Source of the DNA: Paecilomyces variotii
Taxonomy: Eukaryota
Length of the DNA stretch: 64,000 bases
Direction: 5' to 3' (one strand)
Assembly: GCA_004022145.1 (NCBI GenBank)
Contig: RCNU01000001.1
The notes under the pieces are model-generated. The model searched no databases. It was not told where the DNA came from and saw only the letters and a list, made by a program, of their open reading frames with translations. This document shows, piece after piece, positions 3,295-55,755 of this stretch. Every line of letters begins with the position of its first letter. Positions within the stretch are counted from its first letter, which is position 1. The translations under genes and the position numbers were made by a program.

Positions 3295-5529
3295 ATGGCG
3301 CCGTCAGCGTGGGAGAGGACCTTCGGGTATTCGAAGAAAGGCTTTGACAAGGCCTGGCAAACCCTGGACAAGTTGGGCGCCCCCGTCAACCGTCTCTCCA
3401 ACCGTGTGGGTGCGGAGGCCTTTTGGCCTATGTCACTGGACAAGGAGAGTGATAAAGCTGCCCGCATTCTGCGCAGTTTCTGCAAAGATGGCTTCTACGA
3501 AGACTTGACTCCAGACGAGGAACGAATGAAGCGGGATTCGAAGGGTAGGCTCGATCGACCGCAAGGAAAACAACGAGTACTGAAGAAGATTCCGACGGAC
3601 GTGATCAAACAAGCAAAGGGACTGGCGATCTTTACAACCATGCGAACGGGACTCTGGGTCAGTGGCGCTGGCGGGAGTGGTGTGTTGCTGGCGAGGATCC
3701 CAGAGACGGGAGAATGGAGTCCGCCGTCCGGAATCCTGCTACATACAGCAGGGATAGGATTCATGGTGGGCGTCGACATCTACGATTGCGTCGTCGTCAT
3801 CAACACATACGAAGCGTTGGAGGGTTTCAAGCGAATTCGCTGTACGCTGGGCGGAGAAGTAAGCGTGGCGGCGGGACCGGTCGGTATCGGTGGTATTCTC
3901 GAGACGGAAGTTCACAAGCGCCAGGCTCCTGTGTGGACATACATGAAGAGTCGTGGTATCTATGCGGGGGTGCAGGTGGATGGCACAATCATCCTCGAAC
4001 GAAACGACGAAAATGAACGGTTTTACGGCGAAAAGCTCCGTGTCCATGACATCCTCGCCGGCAAAGTGAGGCATCCGCCAGACTCCCTCAAGATGCTGAT
4101 GCAAACCATCAAGAGCGCCCAGGGTGACTCAGACGTTGATGAATCTGTTCTTCCATCTCCAGGACAGGCACCAGGTGATATGGAACTGGTTGACAGCAAC
4201 TTTGGGATCCCCGCAGCCGACGATCCAGATCCTTTCGGAGTCAAAGCTCTGGAAGCAGAAGGTCTCTTCATTCGCGAGGCAGCAACCAAGGCCAGGCCAA
4301 GTCACGAAGTCTTTGAGTTTCGCCCAGCACCATCGAGTCCTATCTACAACACATTCCCGCGGTACAGCATGGGCAGCTCGCGGCGGACGAGCTGGCGGGG
4401 TAGTCTGCAGAGTTATACCAGCGTCGATAGGGGAACGCAAACTGAAGATCGTCCCATGACTGCGACCACTACGACAAGCAGGATGTCATCTCCTCGGAGC
4501 ATCAAGGAGTCTATCTCCCCGCAGCCGGAAGAAGTTCTCGAGGAACGCGAAGAACACGCAGAAACCGAATATACGAACGGAGACCACGAGCCCAACGGTG
4601 AGCCGGAAGTCCACGAGATTGGCACTACGACGGTTGCCAAGCGTGAGAGCGCTGTCAGCATTCCTCCCACTGTTGATGACCAGACGGTCTCGCCCGAATC
4701 CAAGCGACTGTCGCCGACATTCACGCGTGCGCGGTTGGTAACAATTCCCAAGCGGATCCCACCGGCTCTCCCACCACGAAACCCCATACGCAAACACGAT
4801 TCGATGTCAACAACCGCTTCCTTGCCCTCGCCGACTGCGTCCCTGCGACGCGAGATCAGAATGTCGAACGAATTTTCCGGTGGTGAAACAAACGGCCTTG
4901 ACCATCTTCCTGAGCACGCGGATGCCTCGTCTGAAGAACTTCCTCCTGACGTTGAAGCTCGCATTGACGCCCTTGTCGATGAGTTTGCTAATGGCCAGCA
5001 CGAGGATCATGTCGCTACGACTGTCACGGAGAAGGATGAGTTCCACTCGATTGCTAGTTCTCAAAGATCGTCGAGGAGCGAGCTGGTTGCCCGTGGAGAA
5101 GAGCAGGAGAACCGCGGGGAAGACAAACACGAGACTGAAAACGGGGAATACAAACACGAGACCGGAAACGAGGAACACAACCATGAGACTGAAAACGAGG
5201 AAGACAAACATGAGATCGGAAACGACGAACACAGACACGAGACCTCAAACGAGGAAGAACCCCATGCTGTGTCATACTATGAGAGTGTCTCCCGACGTAA
5301 TTCGACAAAGGAGGACCACACCACAACTGAAGTCGATGTCGAGGATGAGGCCGAGAGGGAAACTGTGAATGGGATCACGGATGATCAGGTCCATGAATCT
5401 CACCCTGGCACGGTTTATCTGACAGATGACGCCGCAGAGGACGAAGAGAAAACTAAGAACGAGCCTGCCCATGGGGCTGCCCACGAGGCCGTGGAGTCCA
5501 CCAAGACTGACGTCCACACGTCGTCATGA
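3295..5529 (+). CDS. Ysc84/SYLF (DUF500) actin-binding domain protein with long acidic disordered tail
   Basis: 744-aa ORF with AKGLAIFT...GSGVLLAR...WSPPSG, D.VVVIN, SVAAGPVG and Y.KSRG.YAGV.VDG...ERNDEN.RFYG motifs of the SYLF domain; PPALPPR proline motif; no SH3 domain seen. Confidence 0.85.
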   Translation: MAPSAWERTFGYSKKGFDKAWQTLDKLGAPVNRLSNRVGAEAFWPMSLDKESDKAARILRSFCKDGFYEDLTPDEERMKRDSKGRLDRPQGKQRVLKKIPTDVIKQAKGLAIFTTMRTGLWVSGAGGSGVLLARIPETGEWSPPSGILLHTAGIGFMVGVDIYDCVVVINTYEALEGFKRIRCTLGGEVSVAAGPVGIGGILETEVHKRQAPVWTYMKSRGIYAGVQVDGTIILERNDENERFYGEKLRVHDILAGKVRHPPDSLKMLMQTIKSAQGDSDVDESVLPSPGQAPGDMELVDSNFGIPAADDPDPFGVKALEAEGLFIREAATKARPSHEVFEFRPAPSSPIYNTFPRYSMGSSRRTSWRGSLQSYTSVDRGTQTEDRPMTATTTTSRMSSPRSIKESISPQPEEVLEEREEHAETEYTNGDHEPNGEPEVHEIGTTTVAKRESAVSIPPTVDDQTVSPESKRLSPTFTRARLVTIPKRIPPALPPRNPIRKHDSMSTTASLPSPTASLRREIRMSNEFSGGETNGLDHLPEHADASSEELPPDVEARIDALVDEFANGQHEDHVATTVTEKDEFHSIASSQRSSRSELVARGEEQENRGEDKHETENGEYKHETGNEEHNHETENEEDKHEIGNDEHRHETSNEEEPHAVSYYESVSRRNSTKEDHTTTEVDVEDEAERETVNGITDDQVHESHPGTVYLTDDAAEDEEKTKNEPAHGAAHEAVESTKTDVHTSS
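5125..5259 (+). repeat. Coding tandem repeat, about 5 x 27 bp (9 aa)
   Basis: KHETENGEY/KHETGNEEH/NHETENEED/KHEIGNDEH/RHETSNEEE, with recurring DNA units like AAACACGAGACTGAAAACG. Confidence 0.85.
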
Positions 5530-26555: not shown

Positions 26556-29500
26556 GGTTATATCGCCCTTATTTTTATCCCTTAAGCTATAAGCTAGTTA
26601 CCTGTTAAATTAATATTTTATTTATTCTATTAAATTCTTTAGGTTCTATTTACCTATTATAAGCTTTTATAGCTTTAAAATATACCCTATTTTAATATTT
26701 TATTAATCTATAAAAATTTTTCTTTAATAAACCCCTAAAAAGCCCTAATTATTAAAAGTATTAGCTTAAGGATAGGTATATTTAGTTACTTATTATAGTC
26801 TAATATAATATAATAATATTATTATTCTAGACACTATATTGCTTTTAAAAAAGCTTTATTAATTATCTAATTAAATCTAAATTATAGTTTAATGCCTATT
26901 ATATATATATAGGCAGCTATATTTAAAGGATTCTTAGCTATTTTAATATTATAACAAGTAGCTGACCTTTTATTAAATAAACTAATCCTTTTTATAGAGC
27001 TAATAGACCTTATTCTTAATAAATAATTATAAGAAGAGATTAAGATAGCATCTATATAGCTAGAGAAGACTTATATAAAGATCTCTTATAATATTCTAAT
27101 AAAGTTAGTTTATAAAACTATTTCTTTATTATATATTTTCCTATAGGAGACTCTTTATTAATTTATAGAATAAGAACTAAATAATATCTGTCCTATTATG
27201 TTAGAGATATATTAGGGTTTATTCCTATATTTAAACATTTAAGGCTATTAATAATTAATACTATAGTTAGTATTAACTATAAATCCTATTATTTTATTAA
27301 ATTCCCCCTTATTATAGTAGTAGGAAGAATATTATAATATTAAAGTTAATCTATTGCGCAAATAAATTAATAATATGCTTAAATAATTAAAGATACCTTA
27401 ACTATAATTAAATAGCAGCAATTTTTAAAATTAAAGCTAGCAGTTTAAGCTCGCTATTAATAATCTAAATATTAAGAATCTTAATATCTTTAATTAAAGT
27501 ATTTTACCTAAGAAAGATAGCTAGTAATAAAAAACTATTTAATCTATTATAAAGAATTAAATTATAATATTGCTAGACCTAAGAATCCTTAAAATTATTT
27601 AATTTTTAGACTAGCTTATTATTACTAATATCTAGCTAAAGCTAAATAAGTAATTTAGTATTATTAGATCTATATATTAGGTTAAGCTCTGCTAGGAATT
27701 TATAGAGCTTATTAATCTCTTTATATTAATCTTGCCTATCTCTACCTATATAAAGATAAAGTATATTCTTACTAAGCTTTAAGATTTTAATACTATGCTA
27801 AAAGATCTCTTTTATAATTAATTCTTAAATTTTATTATTAAATAGGAGTTTAGCTAGGCAAATAATTATTTTAAATAGTTTTATATTACTAGCACTATTA
27901 AATACCTAGATATTAAAAATCTAGATATTAGAAAGATATTAAAAGACCTTATCTAATATAAAAAGACTATTACTAATATTAGATCTATATAGAGACTAAT
28001 AGTTTAAAATACTCTAATAATATTAAAGCCTATAATAAGGTCTACAGATTTAAGACCTAGAGCTCTATAGAAACTATATAGTGTCTATAATAAATTAGGC
28101 TATATTATAGAGAGATATTAGATAATATACCCTAAACTATATCTATTGTAGAATTAGAATAATATAATCTCTAAATCTATAGTATTATTAAATCCTAATC
28201 CCTTAGTTTATTTTATAATCTATTAAATTAATAGTATCTCTGCTATACTGGGAGTAATATCTATATATTATATAAAGAGGAATTAAATACTAGATATTAG
28301 ATTAGATATCTACCTAATTACTTAAAGAGAGGTATTTCTAGTATTTAAATCTATAAGAATTTCTACAGCTTACTTTAAGGATATTTATAAAAAATAATTA
28401 TTATCTTAAAGAATTAATACTATTCTAATATAATTTAATAATATTCTATTATTTATCTCTAATATTTATTATGCTTTAGAAGCTAATAATAATATTCTAT
28501 TATTTATTTTATTAAAGAGCTAAGGATTTAAGATCTCTATAGATAAAGATAATAAATATTTTACTATAAAGACCCTAGAAAATAGCTGTTTTTATAGTAT
28601 TATTATTCCTAAAGGGTAAAAATATCTTATATATCTTATAATATCCTCTCTTAATAAATAGATTTATATTGTTTTATCTATTACTGCTATAAATATTTCT
28701 AAATAGAATATTACTACTTAATTAGTTAATCTTAAACTATTTAAAGCCCTATCTCCCTATTATATTACTAGATTCTTAATAGAGTAGTATTAAATTTTTA
28801 GTTATATTAATTAAGGCGATCTGCTCTATTTAATATATAATCTCTTTTTTAGTATTATTATTATAGAAGCTAAAGATCTCTTATTCTATATTATTTATTA
28901 ATAGGCTAAAATTATTAAATAAGTCTTATAAAGGCCTATGCTTAGAGCTATAGTATCTGCTAAATATTTTTATATTAATATTATTAATAGTAGATATATA
29001 TTAGATTATAAAATAAATAAAGACCTCCCTAATTATATTAAGATAAAATATACGCTATTAATTATAGATAATACTATCTGCTATAGATAGGTATATCCTA
29101 TAGTAAATAGAGCTTATATTCTGTTCTTTATTAATAATTTAATATATTAATTAAATATAGAGGGTTTTATAATTATATATATCTGATTAGATAATAAGCT
29201 TTATATTAAAGCTCTAGATATTTTTTTTAAGACACTAGGCATTGCCTATAAACCTATAGCTGTTTATATACCTTAGCAAGATAGTATAAATAAATGCTCT
29301 ATAAGGACTATTATAGAGTAAGCCTGAGCTATAATAATTAACTCTAGCTTAAAGCACTTTCTTTAGCTATATATTATTTAGTATAGTATATATATTATAA
29401 ATTAAATCCCTATTTTAGTTCTATTATTTTATAACTATACTTTAAGAGCTATATCTTATAACAGTAATATTAAGCCTGTTAAATAGCGCGTCTTAGTTTA

Positions 29501-50028: not shown

Positions 50029-51294
50029 ATGGGTTTGACTTCGCAACAGGTTGACATCATTAAGGCGACTGTGCCTGTGCTCGAGCAGCATGGCCTCGCT
50101 ATCACAACCACTTTCTACAAGAACATGCTCGATGAGCACACGGAGCTCCATGGAATGTTCAACACGGCCAACCAGGTGACTCGGCATCAACAGAAGGCAT
50201 TAGCTGGTGCTCTGTACGCATATGCTGCCAACATCGACAACTTGGCGGCACTGAATGATACTGTGGAGCTTATCACCCAAAGGCATGCATCTCTGTACAT
50301 CAAACCAGAGCACTACAAGATCGTCGGAACTTATCTTCTGGCGGCCATGAAGATCGTTCTTGGCGATGCTTTGACGCCAGAGATCCATGATGCTTGGGCT
50401 GCCGCCTACTGGCTACTGGCTGATCTCTTGATCGAGAAAGAAGCCAGCTTGTACCGTTCTGCTGGCGACTGGAACGACTGGCGCGAGTTCAAGATCGAAA
50501 AGAAGGTCCCCGAGTCGGATGAGATCACCTCCTTCTACTTGAAGCCCGTGGATGGCAAACCTCTGCCATCTTTCCGCCCGGGACAGTATATCTCTGTCAT
50601 GGTGGATGTTCCGGCCCTCAACTACCCTCAGGCCAGACAGTATTCCCTGAGTGATATGCCTCGACCAGACTACTACCGTATCAGTGTCAAGAAGGAAACG
50701 GGAGTCAACCCGTCGAACCCGCAAGCTGCTGGTCACCCCGGCTACATCTCCAACATCCTCCATGATATCAAAAAGGAGGGCGATGTTGTGCTTGTCTCCC
50801 ACCCTTACGGCGACTTCTACCTCGCAGACTTCGATGGCGAGAAGGCCACCAGCAAGAATCCCATTGTTCTCATCTCCGCTGGTGTTGGTCTGACCCCGCT
50901 GACATCCATTCTCAACACGATCACCTCCAAGTCGGGTCAGACAGACAGGAAGGTTCACTTTGTCCACGGTGTGCGCCGCGGAAGTGCTCGTGCCTTCAAG
51001 GATCACATTCAGAATACCGCGAAAGCTCACTCGAATCTCAAGGTGACATTCTTCAACAGCCTTCCATCTTCCACGGAGAAACAGGGTGTTGATTACCACC
51101 ATGCTGAGCGGGTTAACCTGCACAAGTTGGACCGCAACGATGACTTGTTCCTCGACGACAAGACCACAGAGTACTATCTCTGTGGACCGGAGAGCTTTAT
51201 GACCGCCATGAAGAAGCAACTGCTGGAGCTTGGCGTCGAGCCAGCTAGAATCAAGTTGGAGCTCTTCGGCACTGGTGGTGTCCCTGCTTCTTAA
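50029..51294 (+). CDS. fhbA: Flavohemoglobin (NO dioxygenase), cytosolic type
   Basis: Globin (IIKATVPVL...FY.NML...H...HY.IVG.YLL), FAD-binding (PGQYISV, RQYSLS) and NAD-binding (SAGVGLTP, YLCGP, ELFG) motifs; intronless; no presequence. Confidence 0.95.
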   Translation: MGLTSQQVDIIKATVPVLEQHGLAITTTFYKNMLDEHTELHGMFNTANQVTRHQQKALAGALYAYAANIDNLAALNDTVELITQRHASLYIKPEHYKIVGTYLLAAMKIVLGDALTPEIHDAWAAAYWLLADLLIEKEASLYRSAGDWNDWREFKIEKKVPESDEITSFYLKPVDGKPLPSFRPGQYISVMVDVPALNYPQARQYSLSDMPRPDYYRISVKKETGVNPSNPQAAGHPGYISNILHDIKKEGDVVLVSHPYGDFYLADFDGEKATSKNPIVLISAGVGLTPLTSILNTITSKSGQTDRKVHFVHGVRRGSARAFKDHIQNTAKAHSNLKVTFFNSLPSSTEKQGVDYHHAERVNLHKLDRNDDLFLDDKTTEYYLCGPESFMTAMKKQLLELGVEPARIKLELFGTGGVPAS

Positions 51295-52537
51295 AGCGAC
51301 TTTTTAATGGTTATGACGGCGTTTTTGGTCAGATGGATTTTTCTACGCCCTAGACGGGTTAGACAGATAGTTACTACTCCCCTCTTAGAAGATTATTTTT
51401 CTTATAATTAGTTCATGAGCTTACATGTCTACATTTTTCTGTTTCCCATTTCATCTTATCTTAGAGGAGTAATATCGATTTTCATCATAAACCAAACACA
51501 GCTTCGAGCTTGACATTAGCAAGAAATCGCCAAGGATCTGATACTACTATATCTATATAGATCGTATATCGGTTATGCGATCTCTCCCAGTCATCATCTG
51601 CATTCTGTTGAACGCTATTGTTTTGAGGCCTTCTTATTCATAAAAGCACTTATTTTGGGCACTGATACCTACAAGCAAAGCTTGATTTTCTGACAACATG
51701 GGTTGAAAAGATGTATTTTCGAATCCTAGAACTGGAAGCATGGCCTTTTCATGCTGATAGGCTTCACTTTCAATAGCGAGCACTCATTGAAACAGGCACT
51801 GGTCGCTGGGTTTGTGAAGTCTATTTATACAGTACAGTGATATAAGACGGGTGTTTGATCGCGTAGTTCAAGCAAGCTTAATACCATCACTCCGTTGATG
51901 AATCTTCTTTTTCTTTTTTCGAGAATGAAAATGAAGAACTGATACTCAATCGCAACTGGTATTAACCACGCTATCGAAGCTCTTACGTTCGTAGAAGAGC
52001 ATCCACGAATATTACGATATCAACCTTGAGGGTTTGTTTGACAACTTCTAACCCAGTAACTATGGTTTCGAGAAGGCAATAGACTACTATTTGACTTGTG
52101 ACGAAGTTACTCGCTACCGCGCTCTTCTGTGTGAGGGCTACTATACAATACCGAAGTTCACCACGCTCCTTAGATATCCGCCATATCTCAGCATCAATCT
52201 CTAACATACTATGTAGTCACCCAGGACCAGCTCCTGACAGATAGAAGAATGCCAAGTAATACCCGCGTAGAGTCCCGCGCTATATCTTCTGAAGATTTGA
52301 TTTTCCTCGACAGCACCCACCACCCTTCCCTTCTGGCGGGTAGTCGATCACAATGCGCAACATCGCCAATATCACAACCACCAATCCACCAAGTAACCAT
52401 TCTAACATCGAACAACACAACCCAACCCCCTCCAATCAAAATAACATCACTTGAGCAAACAAAACCCTCTCTACAAACAACGCAAATATTCGAGTCCTCG
52501 CTTGCTACTAGCGCCGTTATTCCCCTGGCCACAAAGG

Positions 52538-52585
52538 TATAAATACCCCCTTCTCCCCTCCCTTTCTTCTTTCTCTTTTTCTCCA
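52538..52585 (+). promoter_or_regulatory. TATA box plus pyrimidine (CT) tract with no downstream protein gene
   Basis: TATAAATA at 52538-52545 followed by about 38 nt of pure C/T. Confidence 0.55.
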
Positions 52586-52830
52586 AGCCGTCTGGACGGA
52601 TGGCAGTAAGCCCTACCGCAGAGGTAGGCAACCAACTCAAATCCTCTTGTGCGGGCAGCGCGAGTCCTACTACGTAGGCAGCGGAATTCCTGCTATGGTA
52701 GGCAGAGTCAAGCCCTCACGTATAGACGCGCAAGTCCTACAAAGTACCGTAGACAGCGCAAGTCTCACCGTGTAAGCAACTCGAGTCCTCATGAGCAGGC
52801 AGCTCAAATCCTCCTTCTTTAGGAGGTCGC
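52581..52830 (+). repeat. Degenerate tandem array of about 10 units (22-30 bp), each a linker plus a hairpin
   Basis: Recurring C(A/G)A(G/A)T-CCT...(GT)AGG-CAGC; perfect stems CCTACC/GGTAGG, CCTAC/GTAGG and CCTCCT/AGGAGG. Confidence 0.75.
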
Positions 52831-53400
52831 GACCAGCTCCTGGCCAGGTTTCAATCTTTGTGGGATTTTCTTCTGGGGGCTTTCAGGGGTGTTTACACCT
52901 CGGATGGGTGGGCGGGCATATCAATCATCAGGACGACTCTTACACCACGGCCTCCGTGTGTAAAGGATACGACAAGAAAAAACTATATCGAGTGAAGACA
53001 CGAGAGAGGAGAGACAGGAGATCGGGAAAAAAAACCCCCCACACAAGTGTTCTTGGCAATGTCCCATTGTCCAAGGAGTCTGCGATACTTATCCGCTTAC
53101 GTGGTGTTTTTCTTCCTCTTCTACTCCCCAATCTTACACACATCTCTCTTCCTCGATATTGGTTTTTCTTATCTTTTCTCTATCATTTCTTCATACCGCC
53201 GTTGTCGTCCCTGATTCTACTTGTTCAATCTTTGGAATCTCATCAAAGTATACACATAATCGTGTATACGCATCTCAATACCTTTTTTTTTTTCATCACT
53301 ATCTCTCGCATGTTCCGAGGGGTGTGGAGAAGAAAAATGGCAGTTGCGATGTGTGAAGTTGAGTTTTGTATGGCTTGGGTGATGTGATGTGATAAGTACC
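52581..53400 (+). ncRNA. Candidate structured non-coding RNA
   Basis: Promoter-like upstream region, hairpin array, further strong hairpins and no credible ORF. Transcription is inferred, not shown; ends are approximate. Confidence 0.4.
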
Positions 53401-53960
53401 TATGATACGACGCGTCGAGGAGACAAGTACGTCGCGGTTCTTAATGTAAATATTTCTTCGCTCGCTCATATTACCTACATACAAGTATGCAGTTATGTGC
53501 ATTCAGTTTATTAACTCGTAGCTATATATCTTTTATTCCCTTATGATTACTTTATTCCTTCCTATAGGTATGCAGGATAGATACTTGATCCCGATGCTGA
53601 TCTTATAGAACGCTGACTTCTCCTTCTGTGTGGATAAGAAGTTGGTTCTTGGTTCCCTGCTACAAAATGTGGAAGAACTAGCTGATTGTTTCCTGTTCCA
53701 GACTGGAGCGGTACTGGAATACAAATTTCGCAAGATTCTCTTGAGCCGTTGTCGAGATGATATAGGGAAGGTCTTTTTTGTTTTACTATCGAAGAGACAA
53801 GAGAGGATTGATTCGAGTGTCGCACAGCTATGTATGTAGAAAGGATCATACGGGACACAGGTTCTGGTTTAGAAAGGCCAAGGTAATCGACAGGGGAGCA
53901 TGAATTCATTATGGAACAGAATGGTATCTTTATATCTTGTCGGGTATGCGTGCAGTCCAA

Positions 53961-55755
53961 TTATTTATCCTTTTTGCCAGACTTGACGGTCTCATCCTTT
54001 TTCTGGTTTCCGGAAGAGCGGGTCACTGAGAGAAGTTTCCACAGCGCCCAGAGGAATCCGAGGGCAACGATGATGATGGTACCAATCTCAATGGTCCTGG
54101 CTTGGATGATCCCTTCCAGACCTTCCTTGATTTCCAGAACGGGGACGTCTACCTGCTCAACCAGTCGGGACTGGACTCCTGGAGTCTTGTCCTTTGAAGG
54201 TGAGGGAGATAACTGGTAGAACATGGTCTTGGGTCCGAAGAGACCGTCCCAGCCGAGATTTACACGGTCGAACGGGTTGACGCCCATTTTGGTCCCTTCC
54301 TCAGCCGTGCAAGCCCAGAACACGATAGGCCAGGGGACAGATACAGTGCGGTTTCCAGATGGAGATGGTTTCAGGTAGCGGAGGTGAAGTGGTATGGTAA
54401 CTTCCCAGTCCTCCTTGGCCGAATCGGTTTCTGCAGGCGTCGCCAGTTCCAGAAGGAGATTCGAGCCCCAGCGAGAAGTGACCCAATCGGGAGCTTCCAG
54501 ATCCGTCTCACCCGAAATGGTGCGTAGAGCAGCCAGGTTATGGGACTCCAGGAAAAGACGATCGGTGGTTGAGAGCTGGTACTTATCGGCGAATATTGGG
54601 GATGGTAGCGTGAGATAGGAATGAAGAGCACATGTCGCATCTGCAGGAGCTGGCGGTGCAGACAGAGAGGAACGAGGAATCGAGATCTTCATCGTCGGAT
54701 GAAGACCGGTCGGTGCCAGGAACGAGACTGTATAGTCCGCAGCCTCCGGTAGCGGATGATGTCGCGACGGGAAAGAGAACATGGTGCCATCTGCGAAAAC
54801 GTTAATAATCCATCTTCAGCAAGAATGACACGAAACATACGCGGATGGTCATCCTCTCCGATGACGGCCAATAATCCAGCGACAGACAATTCCTCTGGCT
54901 CCGTAGCTGGCTGGCTGCTCAGCAGCCCAACCTCTATCTTCTCCATCCCGAGCTCACCCTTCCTGACGTCTGCTATCCATCCATTCCCCTCTGGAGACTT
55001 GGCCCAATATGCCGACACGGTCAGAGCATGCGATATACGATCATAATCGATGTCGAGGTAATCTGCAGATAGAAGCGACGAGGCATGGTTCTGGCATTCC
55101 GCATCCGACGATGGACATAATTTCTGCTGAATATATGTAACGAGTTCACTAATCGAGGGCAAGAGGCTGTAAAACTGATAAGATGCAACAGATGCGAATC
55201 GCTGAGAAATCAGGGGCGGAGTCGTAAACGATATCTTTCCTAGTGTCAACAAGCGATCCAACGAGGCGGTAGCACTGATAAGCTTACCTCTGGCAGCGTA
55301 CACTTCAATTCCTCACTGAACGCCTTCTTGAGCAGCGGACAAAGACCCTCTCTGAAAAGGCCAATTAGTATCACGTATATACCGTATAGAAAGCTCGAAG
55401 CACGTACGTCAATCGCTGCGAATCGACCGGGGTAAAGAAGACATGTAAACCGGGAGACACCCTGCTGGAAAAGGGAACGACAGCTTCAAATGGCCGCTCA
55501 GTGGCCCATCTGATATGGAGTTCATGTGCATGCTTCAGGACATTCCAGAGCTATATGGCAGTTAGCTTGGGCCAGTATCATGTTTGGTTGTAGGTATAAA
55601 GCTACCTCCGACGGGAGCTCGTTGAAGCCAAAGGTAACTCGCTCCTCGCGGGCGGAATCCAGGCCTCGAAGCTTCAATGCATCGCTGGTCAACTGGACTT
55701 GATCCTGGTCAAAGGGCGAATCTGGTCCCTGAGCGAAAGTAATCCGTCTTCTCAT
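53961..55755 (-). CDS. pbn1: Pbn1/PIG-X (GPI mannosyltransferase I subunit)
   Basis: MRRRITF...AREER.T....ELP, FTPGLHVF-like segment, FSFPSRHH, PTGLHP, C.LH.YLTLP..IFADKYQL, GETDLEAPDW, IPLHLRYL; C-terminal TM followed by KKDK. Confidence 0.9.

Follow-up and report, generated by a model that had tools for sequence, protein, structure and literature searches.

Minisatellites, that is, head-to-tail copies of 10-100-bp units, are the nearest described counterpart of the array that we analyzed here, which likewise consists of head-to-tail units (23-31 nt) on one strand and at one locus and differs in length in a relative. However, its units diverge from each other far more than those of typical active minisatellites. 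In mammals, the A-repeat of Xist comprises about 8-10 units, each of roughly 24-26 nt, close to the 5′ end of this Pol II non-coding RNA, and its small hairpins are thought to recruit proteins. By analogy, the array is alike in form, with about ten short hairpin-prone units near the 5′ part, but it belongs to another kingdom, its sequence is unrelated, its spacers are not U-rich and 4 of its 10 units are unfolded. The sponge RNAs CsrB and RsmZ share with it the idea of many short stem-loops in series; nevertheless, their loops carry a constant GGA and their hosts are bacteria, CsrA being a bacterial protein, whereas the loops of the array vary and its host is a fungus. The meiRNA of fission yeast is a fungal Pol II non-coding RNA that acts via repeated short motifs. 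It is a decoy with DSR hexamers (UNAAAC), and these motifs are single-stranded rather than stems.

A preliminary description of this DNA had proposed a decoy or scaffold RNA conceptually like CsrB/RsmZ or meiRNA. Neither likeness withstood closer comparison. GGA occurs 4 times in the array (52594, 52598, 52683 and 52822) against 4.2 expected, never in the middle of a unit loop, and to this are added the fungal host and the absence of an Rfam match; for the DSR hexamer UNAAAC, the count in the array is 0. Overall, the repeat is real; the picture of hairpin modules is so only in part, and a decoy function lacks support. We favor the view that the locus is a lineage-specific, old and degenerate minisatellite that descends from a palindromic founder and lies in the 5′ portion of what is probably a non-coding transcription unit. 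We consider the chances of this view being right and of its being wrong about equal.

In the window, by which we mean the whole 64-kb stretch of DNA that was analyzed, the array sits in the gap between two convergent genes. The flavohaemoglobin gene at 50029-51294 on the + strand encodes a product with globin, FAD-binding and NAD-binding domains that shares 99% identity with a Paecilomyces variotii protein and 92% identity with a P. lecythidis protein; because of the former identity, the host is a fungus, and one like Paecilomyces variotii. The PIG-X/PBN1 gene (Pfam PF08320, E = 4e-72) lies on the - strand, with its stop codon at 53961-53963. A distance of 2.7 kb separates the two stop codons, which is long for a convergent pair. 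The G+C content is 0.53-0.55 in the array, 0.47-0.51 in the 300 nt on each side and 0.35-0.47 in most nearby intergenic DNA. Full-text searches of the accessible literature turned up no account of this locus and none of lncRNAs with hairpin repeats in Paecilomyces. The promoter region and the array are arranged as follows:

52473-52556, + strand: core-promoter island with a TATA box, aligned in two relatives
52539-52546, + strand: TATAAATA box, read from the sequence
52547-52583, + strand: C/T-rich tract, likely the transcription-start region
52584-52830, + strand: degenerate tandem array of 10 units with a basic period of 23 nt, from periodicity and a unit model

All ten consecutive units of the preliminary description were recovered in place. 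From U0 to U9 they measure 23, 31, 23, 23, 24, 23, 28, 23, 23 and 26 nt, and their consensus is about CAAGTCCTAC-NNN-GTAGGCAGCG. The head-to-tail periodicity (23-28 nt) is far above chance. The array shares 32 4-mers at lags of 20-30, compared with 11.2 ± 4.3, and none of 500 dinucleotide shuffles reached 32. When at most 3 mismatches were allowed, the unit-junction motif matched the 64-kb window at 11 sites, compared with 2.0 expected. Six of these sites fall inside the array, all on the + strand, at spacings of 23, 47, 28, 23 and 23. Similarly, a covariance model of the unit gave 21 matches in the window at E ≤ 10, 10 of them in the array, and the best 8 are all array units. Neither scan revealed a second array of the unit or of the junction motif elsewhere in the 64-kb window. 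The best internal block alignment, 32/42 at a lag of 144 nt, corresponds to units in register and thus to no higher-order repeat. Ten head-to-tail units on the + strand at a single locus, each within 10-100 bp, place the array among minisatellites by definition.

The copies are nonetheless strongly degenerate. Tandem Repeats Finder recognized just 2.2 copies (52654-52705, period 23, 79% matches), and a single unit of the ten (U3, with 1 mismatch) comes within 3 mismatches of the 20-position consensus. Linkers and stem bases had been described as conserved; the tandem units behind that statement are real, but their conservation is weaker than it implied.

We folded each unit alone and compared it with 200 shuffles, which yielded the following z-scores:

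52584-52606, + strand: U0, z = -2.98; hairpin of 7 pairs including G-U, in a register other than that of the preliminary description
52607-52637, + strand: U1, z = -2.92; 6-bp hairpin CCTACC/GGTAGG, pair probability 0.63
52638-52660, + strand: U2, z = +1.07; without a stable hairpin
52661-52683, + strand: U3, z = -0.61; the unit most like the consensus, a 3-nt loop on a 5-bp stem, pair probability 0.43
52684-52707, + strand: U4, z = -1.51; weak hairpin in another register
52708-52730, + strand: U5, z = +0.40; without a stable hairpin
52731-52758, + strand: U6, z = -2.10; hairpin with an 8-nt loop, pair probability 0.87
52759-52781, + strand: U7, minimum free energy 0, z = +0.77; unfolded
52782-52804, + strand: U8, z = +1.67; without a stable hairpin, pair probability 0.02
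52805-52830, + strand: U9, z = -3.28; 6-bp stem CCTCCT/AGGAGG, pair probability 0.99, the sole unit with a compensated stem change

A hairpin had been drawn in each of the ten units, with the remark that three units pair only weakly. Our data reduce this picture: the hairpin is clear in 4 of 10 units (U0, U1, U6 and U9), weak in 2 (U3 and U4) and absent from the remaining 4 (U2, U5, U7 and U8), which fold no better than their shuffles. The proposal also depended on the folding of the array exceeding that of shuffled sequence. As a whole, the array does so marginally on the + strand (z = -2.07, with 9 of 200 shuffles folding equally well), but 4 of the 10 units stand at z > 0. The - strand of the array folds worse than the + strand (z = -1.15). 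The region downstream of the array, at 52831-53060, is without a structural signal (z = +1.05 and +0.48).

Placing the units in context changes their pairing. In the minimum-energy fold of the 250 nt, 40 of 73 pairs join different units, and the stems previously drawn in U0 (CCGT/ACGG), U4 and U8 have pair probabilities of about 0 in the full array because other registers win. Perfect hairpins, with a stem of at least 5 and a loop of 3-12, number 5 in the array, whereas the window averages 3.2 per 250 nt, and as many as in the array occur in 16% of 250-nt windows; the density of perfect hairpins in the array is therefore ordinary for the window. Complementarity between the arms is slightly higher within than between units: 3.78 versus 3.31 Watson-Crick pairs of 5 (511 of 20,000 permutations reach the total), or 4.11 versus 3.68 with G-U allowed (70 of 20,000), in a test whose register was picked by hand and is thereby biased towards structure. 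A model-fitted unit alignment followed the sequence register rather than the hairpins and misplaced the long-loop units, and the pair counts were taken from the hand register instead.

Several stem changes had been described as keeping the pairing. At arm position 4, U2, U5, U8 and U9 share a change from A to C, and the matching G is present in 1 of these 4: the change is compensated in U9 and uncompensated in U2, U5 and U8. The consensus unit is itself palindromic, so that its copies largely inherited their stems as a single feature. The picture is that of a palindromic repeat in decay, with at most a faint sign that pairing was maintained.

Directly upstream of the array, the TATAAATA box and the CT tract are both present, as previously noted. 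We take the latter to be the start region from general knowledge of filamentous-fungal promoters. In the more distant of two relatives (contig X3 record 15), colinear alignment is limited to three pieces, 51353-51392, 52355-52382 and 52473-52556. The third piece, which is the promoter island, differs in 14 of 84 letters, and beyond 52556 the contig continues as an unaligned end that is likewise C/T-rich. The closer relative (contig X3 record 14) aligns across the island as well. The promoter is therefore preserved while the sequence behind it changes fast. That both relatives retain the TATA island makes some transcription from the locus probable.

Ten of the 19 listed sequencing runs contain part of the stretch, and the contigs of four runs were aligned to the window. 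Two contigs cover the locus:

52553-52997, unstranded: contig from an RNA run of the same organism (X1 record 5), 445 nt with 0 other letters and 0 gaps, unspliced
52921-53352, unstranded: metatranscriptome contig of a relative (X2 record 12), 432 nt with 13 other letters and 10 gap letters

Six of the 7 aligned X1 contigs are at least 99% like the window. The run contains RNA, because its pbn1 contig is without the two introns (54791-54840 and 55235-55287, missing from the RNA-run contigs); the X2 metatranscriptome likewise carries a spliced pbn1 contig. The X1 contig over the array starts at 52553, 14 nt past the first base of the TATA box. Additionally, X1 holds contigs in the upstream intergenic DNA, at 51742-51892, 51937-52087 and 52161-52413. 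Because this DNA is covered alike, unspliced background or DNA carry-over is possible. Contig depth was 3.87 for X1 over the array and 6.79 for X2, compared with 69-597 for the contigs of the neighbors (427-597 for the neighbors in X1), although depth is a single value for each contig and reflects expression poorly, so that low abundance is a hint only. X1 leaves 52998-53520 uncovered, X2 leaves 51446-52920 and run X11 the whole intergenic region, but such gaps in cover carry no evidential weight. Taken together, the RNA-run contigs of two studies, which are unstranded and without defined transcript ends, make transcription of the locus plausible, and such transcription would proceed on the + strand from the TATA promoter.

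No open frame runs through the array, each of the three + frames being interrupted by stops. Its region contains three ATGs (52600, 52695 and 52791), which open 25, 26 and 198 codons. The frame of 25 codons was correctly described, but its ATG is not the only one nearby, as had been stated. Two features bear on coding capacity:

52791-53387, + strand: 198-codon ATG frame starting within the array, judged not coding
Exons 52600-52605, 52659-52771 and 52823 on, with introns 52606-52658 and 52772-52822, + strand: two-intron model, a rival gene model

The 187 residues encoded by 52824-53384, the part of the 198-codon frame beyond the array, had 0 homologues among 1.84 billion representative proteins, and Pfam gave no above-threshold match for 7 translated frames, including the stop-to-stop frame 52776-53384. 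In the near relative, indels of -1 (52977), +1 (53106), +2 (53142), +1 (53162), +1 (53248) and -3 (53284) interrupt the region, and the 1-nt deletion at 52977 shifts reading into a frame that stops at 52995. We judge the locus to be non-coding. The earlier non-coding reading agrees with all of these data, namely stops in every frame, 0 homologues, no Pfam match and frameshifting indels in a relative.

The array matches no recognized RNA family either, as had been supposed. A search of Rfam, whose families include CsrB/RsmZ, snoRNAs, snRNAs and telomerase RNA, over 51300-54000 gave 4 matches at E ≤ 10, none of them in the array, the best with 19.1 bits against a gathering score of 70. Searches for tRNA and tmRNA found 0, and telomere-type hexamer motifs, used in the scan for a telomerase-RNA template, occur 0 times in the array. 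By-eye inspection for snoRNA boxes gave nothing convincing, and a scan for bacterial-type promoters and terminators is uninformative for a fungus.

The comparison with the closer relative was the most telling for the array itself:

52559-52880, no strand assigned: segment without conservation in the close relative, in which X3 record 14 joins 52558 to 52881

In this contig of 17,299 nt, 244 other letters replace the 322 nt and are not alignable at ≥85%. The flanks align with 53 other letters and 8 gaps in 732 (the left flank, 51827 to 52558) and with 89 and 31 in 2520, an identity of about 93-96%, that is, a divergence of about 4-7%. The contig behaves as genomic DNA of a near relative, because it keeps a pbn1 intron and includes intergenic DNA. 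The array and its immediate surroundings are the sole part of the interval that is not alignable at ≥85% in it. A lack of conservation in relatives had been named beforehand as an outcome that would refute the decoy proposal, and this outcome was obtained in the sole close relative examined, in which the array is not alignable at ≥85%. Furthermore, 29 metagenome PBN1 loci (≤60% identity, 187,777 bases) were without a flavohaemoglobin neighbor, alignable intergenic DNA or clusters of the unit motif, these loci being too distant to judge conservation among close species.

We therefore return to the degenerate minisatellite and provide a putative course for its formation. A founder unit of about 23 nt, with the 5-bp inverted repeat CCTAC-N3-GTAGG, may have multiplied head to tail about ten times via replication slippage or unequal exchange. 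The copies would later have drifted apart, four units being already without pairing. If the founder was palindromic before it multiplied, then most hairpins would be one inherited property and not ten separately maintained modules. The few "compensated" stems could have arisen free of selection, for example, through template switching within quasi-palindromes. According to a preprint, template switching during replication can generate hairpins (bioRxiv 10.1101/2021.04.15.439925), and it would offer a selection-free route to perfect stems and to apparent compensation like that of U9. We infer this mechanism of origin and, similarly, that the array is without a sequence-specific RNA function. 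Several observations run against the minisatellite. The TATA island is kept, RNA-run contigs lie over the array (X1) and downstream of it (X2), the G+C content of the array is above that of most surrounding DNA, the + strand folds better, and pairing within units is in slight excess. We also remained puzzled by the age of the array: the strong divergence of the units makes it look old, yet a relative that is 4-7% diverged has nothing alignable there. The missing alignable array in a near relative needs a rearrangement or unusually fast change, and a neutral minisatellite fits this only loosely.

Apart from the puzzle of its age, these same observations sustain the possibility that the locus encodes a Pol II lncRNA whose repeated linker-plus-hairpin units are predicted protein-binding modules, acting as a sponge or scaffold, with fast turnover of the units. 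Many lncRNA repeat domains evolve quickly by unit turnover. We kept this possibility, as a doubtful one, because of the conserved TATA island, the contigs that RNA runs of two studies provide at the locus, the G+C content in excess of most surrounding intergenic DNA, a + strand that folds better than the - strand, and complementarity that is slightly higher within than between units; the absence of coding capacity, the ten units on one strand and the four strong hairpins speak for it as well. However, the array is not alignable at ≥85% in the close relative, 4 of 10 units are unfolded, three of the previously drawn stems are out-competed in context, compensation is found in 1 of 4 units, and Rfam gave no match. 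Moreover, the X1 contig begins only 14 nt past the start of the TATA box, at 52553, and similar small contigs cover the upstream DNA at 51742-52413. The part of the earlier proposal that concerned a promoter-driven non-coding RNA fits the data, whereas the decoy or scaffold part is unsupported, given the unaligned array in the relative, the 4 of 10 unfolded units and the lack of an Rfam match. A more specific version is rather unlikely: a Paecilomyces-specific Pol II lncRNA with a conserved TATA and C/T promoter and a 5′ domain of about ten 23-nt modules that would recruit or titrate an RNA-binding protein. If true, it would be a fungal counterpart of Xist A-repeat-like domains, kept by unit turnover and not by sequence conservation. 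An lncRNA of this kind would join a very short list of modular repeat lncRNAs known from filamentous fungi, and its small size and its location behind a well-defined promoter would make it easy to test.

The remaining alternatives are less likely than the modular lncRNA. A cis-acting DNA element, in which the palindromes would be candidate sites for a dimeric DNA-binding protein acting on the promoter or on chromatin, is improbable. The CCTAC-N3-GTAGG inverted repeats may resemble the sites of dimeric factors and recur every ~23 bp beside a conserved promoter, and the array contains 4 copies of AGGCA, presumably a site that a zinc-finger factor binds in filamentous fungi; nevertheless, the TATA box is upstream of the array, the arm spacers vary from 3 to 8 or more, the palindrome is lost in 4 units, and the relative does not conserve the array. 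We consider it very improbable that the locus holds a small protein-coding gene with two short introns (227 codons and a stop, ending at 53387). Both putative introns of this model begin with GTAAGC and end with AG, with a pyrimidine run before the second AG; frame 0 is open over 52512-53387 save for one TAA at 52773-52775, and the TATA and C/T promoter is followed by an ATG 60 nt downstream. However, the sole RNA-run contig that covers this model follows the genome without splicing, and the model's branch sites (CTCAAAT) are poor, the branch-site consensus being of the CTRAC type. Its exon 3 encodes the 187 residues for which neither a homologue in 1.84 billion representatives nor a Pfam match was found, the frame crosses T-rich low-complexity sequence, and in the relative the 1-nt deletion at 52977 ends it at 52995, with more frameshifting indels behind. 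The least probable of all is the remnant of a MITE- or SINE-like mobile element with an internal tandem repeat. A perfect 12-nt direct repeat, GACCAGCTCCTG, at 52225-52236 and 52831-52842 brackets the promoter and the array, and 15-nt arms that are 80% complementary occur at 52529-52543 and 52849-52863, but both are at chance level; we estimate the probability that a 12-mer is repeated by chance within 2.7 kb at about 0.2. In addition, the close relative aligns through the left boundary of such an element, from 51827 to 52558, and the 64-kb window contains no other array of the unit or junction motif.

If the degenerate minisatellite that we favor is the right reading, its main value is as a caution: to a reader of the raw sequence, a tandem repeat with a palindromic founder mimics hairpin modules with compensatory changes. 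Proper controls are to compare complementarity within and between units, to fold the units in context and to examine near relatives for conservation. The 64-kb window has few tandem repeats overall, 9 rows in all. Among the sequencing runs, four others, whose organism label X1 shares, contain all sampled words of the stretch and possibly represent one strain, and in run X11, labeled as the same species, pbn1 has 77 differing letters in 585.

Through the degenerate 23-nt tandem repeat (the array, 52584-52830, +) and beyond it on both sides, a long frame stays almost continuously open, and the surrounding sequence holds further repeats and the end of a transcript. The features considered are as follows (window coordinates).

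52512-53387, + strand: near-open reading frame of 290 codons, with a sole stop, TAA, at 52773-52775
52225-52236 and 52831-52842: perfect 12-nt direct repeat, GACCAGCTCCTG, flanking the promoter and array
52966-52992 and 53152-53178: a pair of 27-nt arms in inverted orientation, with 81% complementarity and a separation of 159 nt, in non-coding DNA downstream of the array
53521-53960: region where the PBN1 transcript has its 3′ end, judged from X1 and X2 contig ends
5118-5258: the strongest of the window's tandem repeats, with 5.2 copies, a period of 27 (or 54) and 79-83% matches
27455-27979: clustered AT-rich tandem repeats

We considered whether the near-open frame, which includes a 198-codon ATG frame starting at 52791, might encode a protein. 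No homologues were found for the 187 residues read from 52824-53384, the part of the frame that was tested, and the frame gave no Pfam match. It is also frameshifted in the near relative. This DNA is rich in T and C, and the open frame probably results from that composition.

The direct repeat GACCAGCTCCTG occurs at about chance level, with our own estimate being approximately 0.2 in 2.7 kb. Folding of the region downstream of the array as a whole, where the inverted arms lie, was not better than that of shuffled sequences.

Toward the PBN1 gene, the contig from X2, a metatranscriptome containing a relative, ends at 53774, and the adjoining T run is a poly(A) tail viewed from the opposite strand. 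The contig from X1, an RNA run whose contigs are mostly nearly identical to the window, extends beyond this end to 53521, which suggests that the PBN1 transcript has alternative or longer 3′ ends. Within the PBN1 gene (54202-55236), X11, a run that shares its species label with those matching the stretch, differs from the window at 77 of 585 letters and at 58 of 394, and it has a different intron boundary (54786 to 54843). The letter differences and the other intron boundary together indicate that the species label of X11 spans more than one species-level lineage.

Elsewhere in the window, the repeat at 5118-5258 may be a coding repeat, because its period is a multiple of three. The covariance model of the array unit gave a chance match at about 29864 (G+C 0.13); this match and the repeat cluster at 27455-27979 suggest that the central part of the window contains sequence very rich in A+T. 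The window and the near relative (X3 record 14) differ by a 191-nt insertion or deletion at 51636-51826, 3′ of the flavohaemoglobin gene. In the relative, position 51635 is joined to 51827 with a lone G in between.
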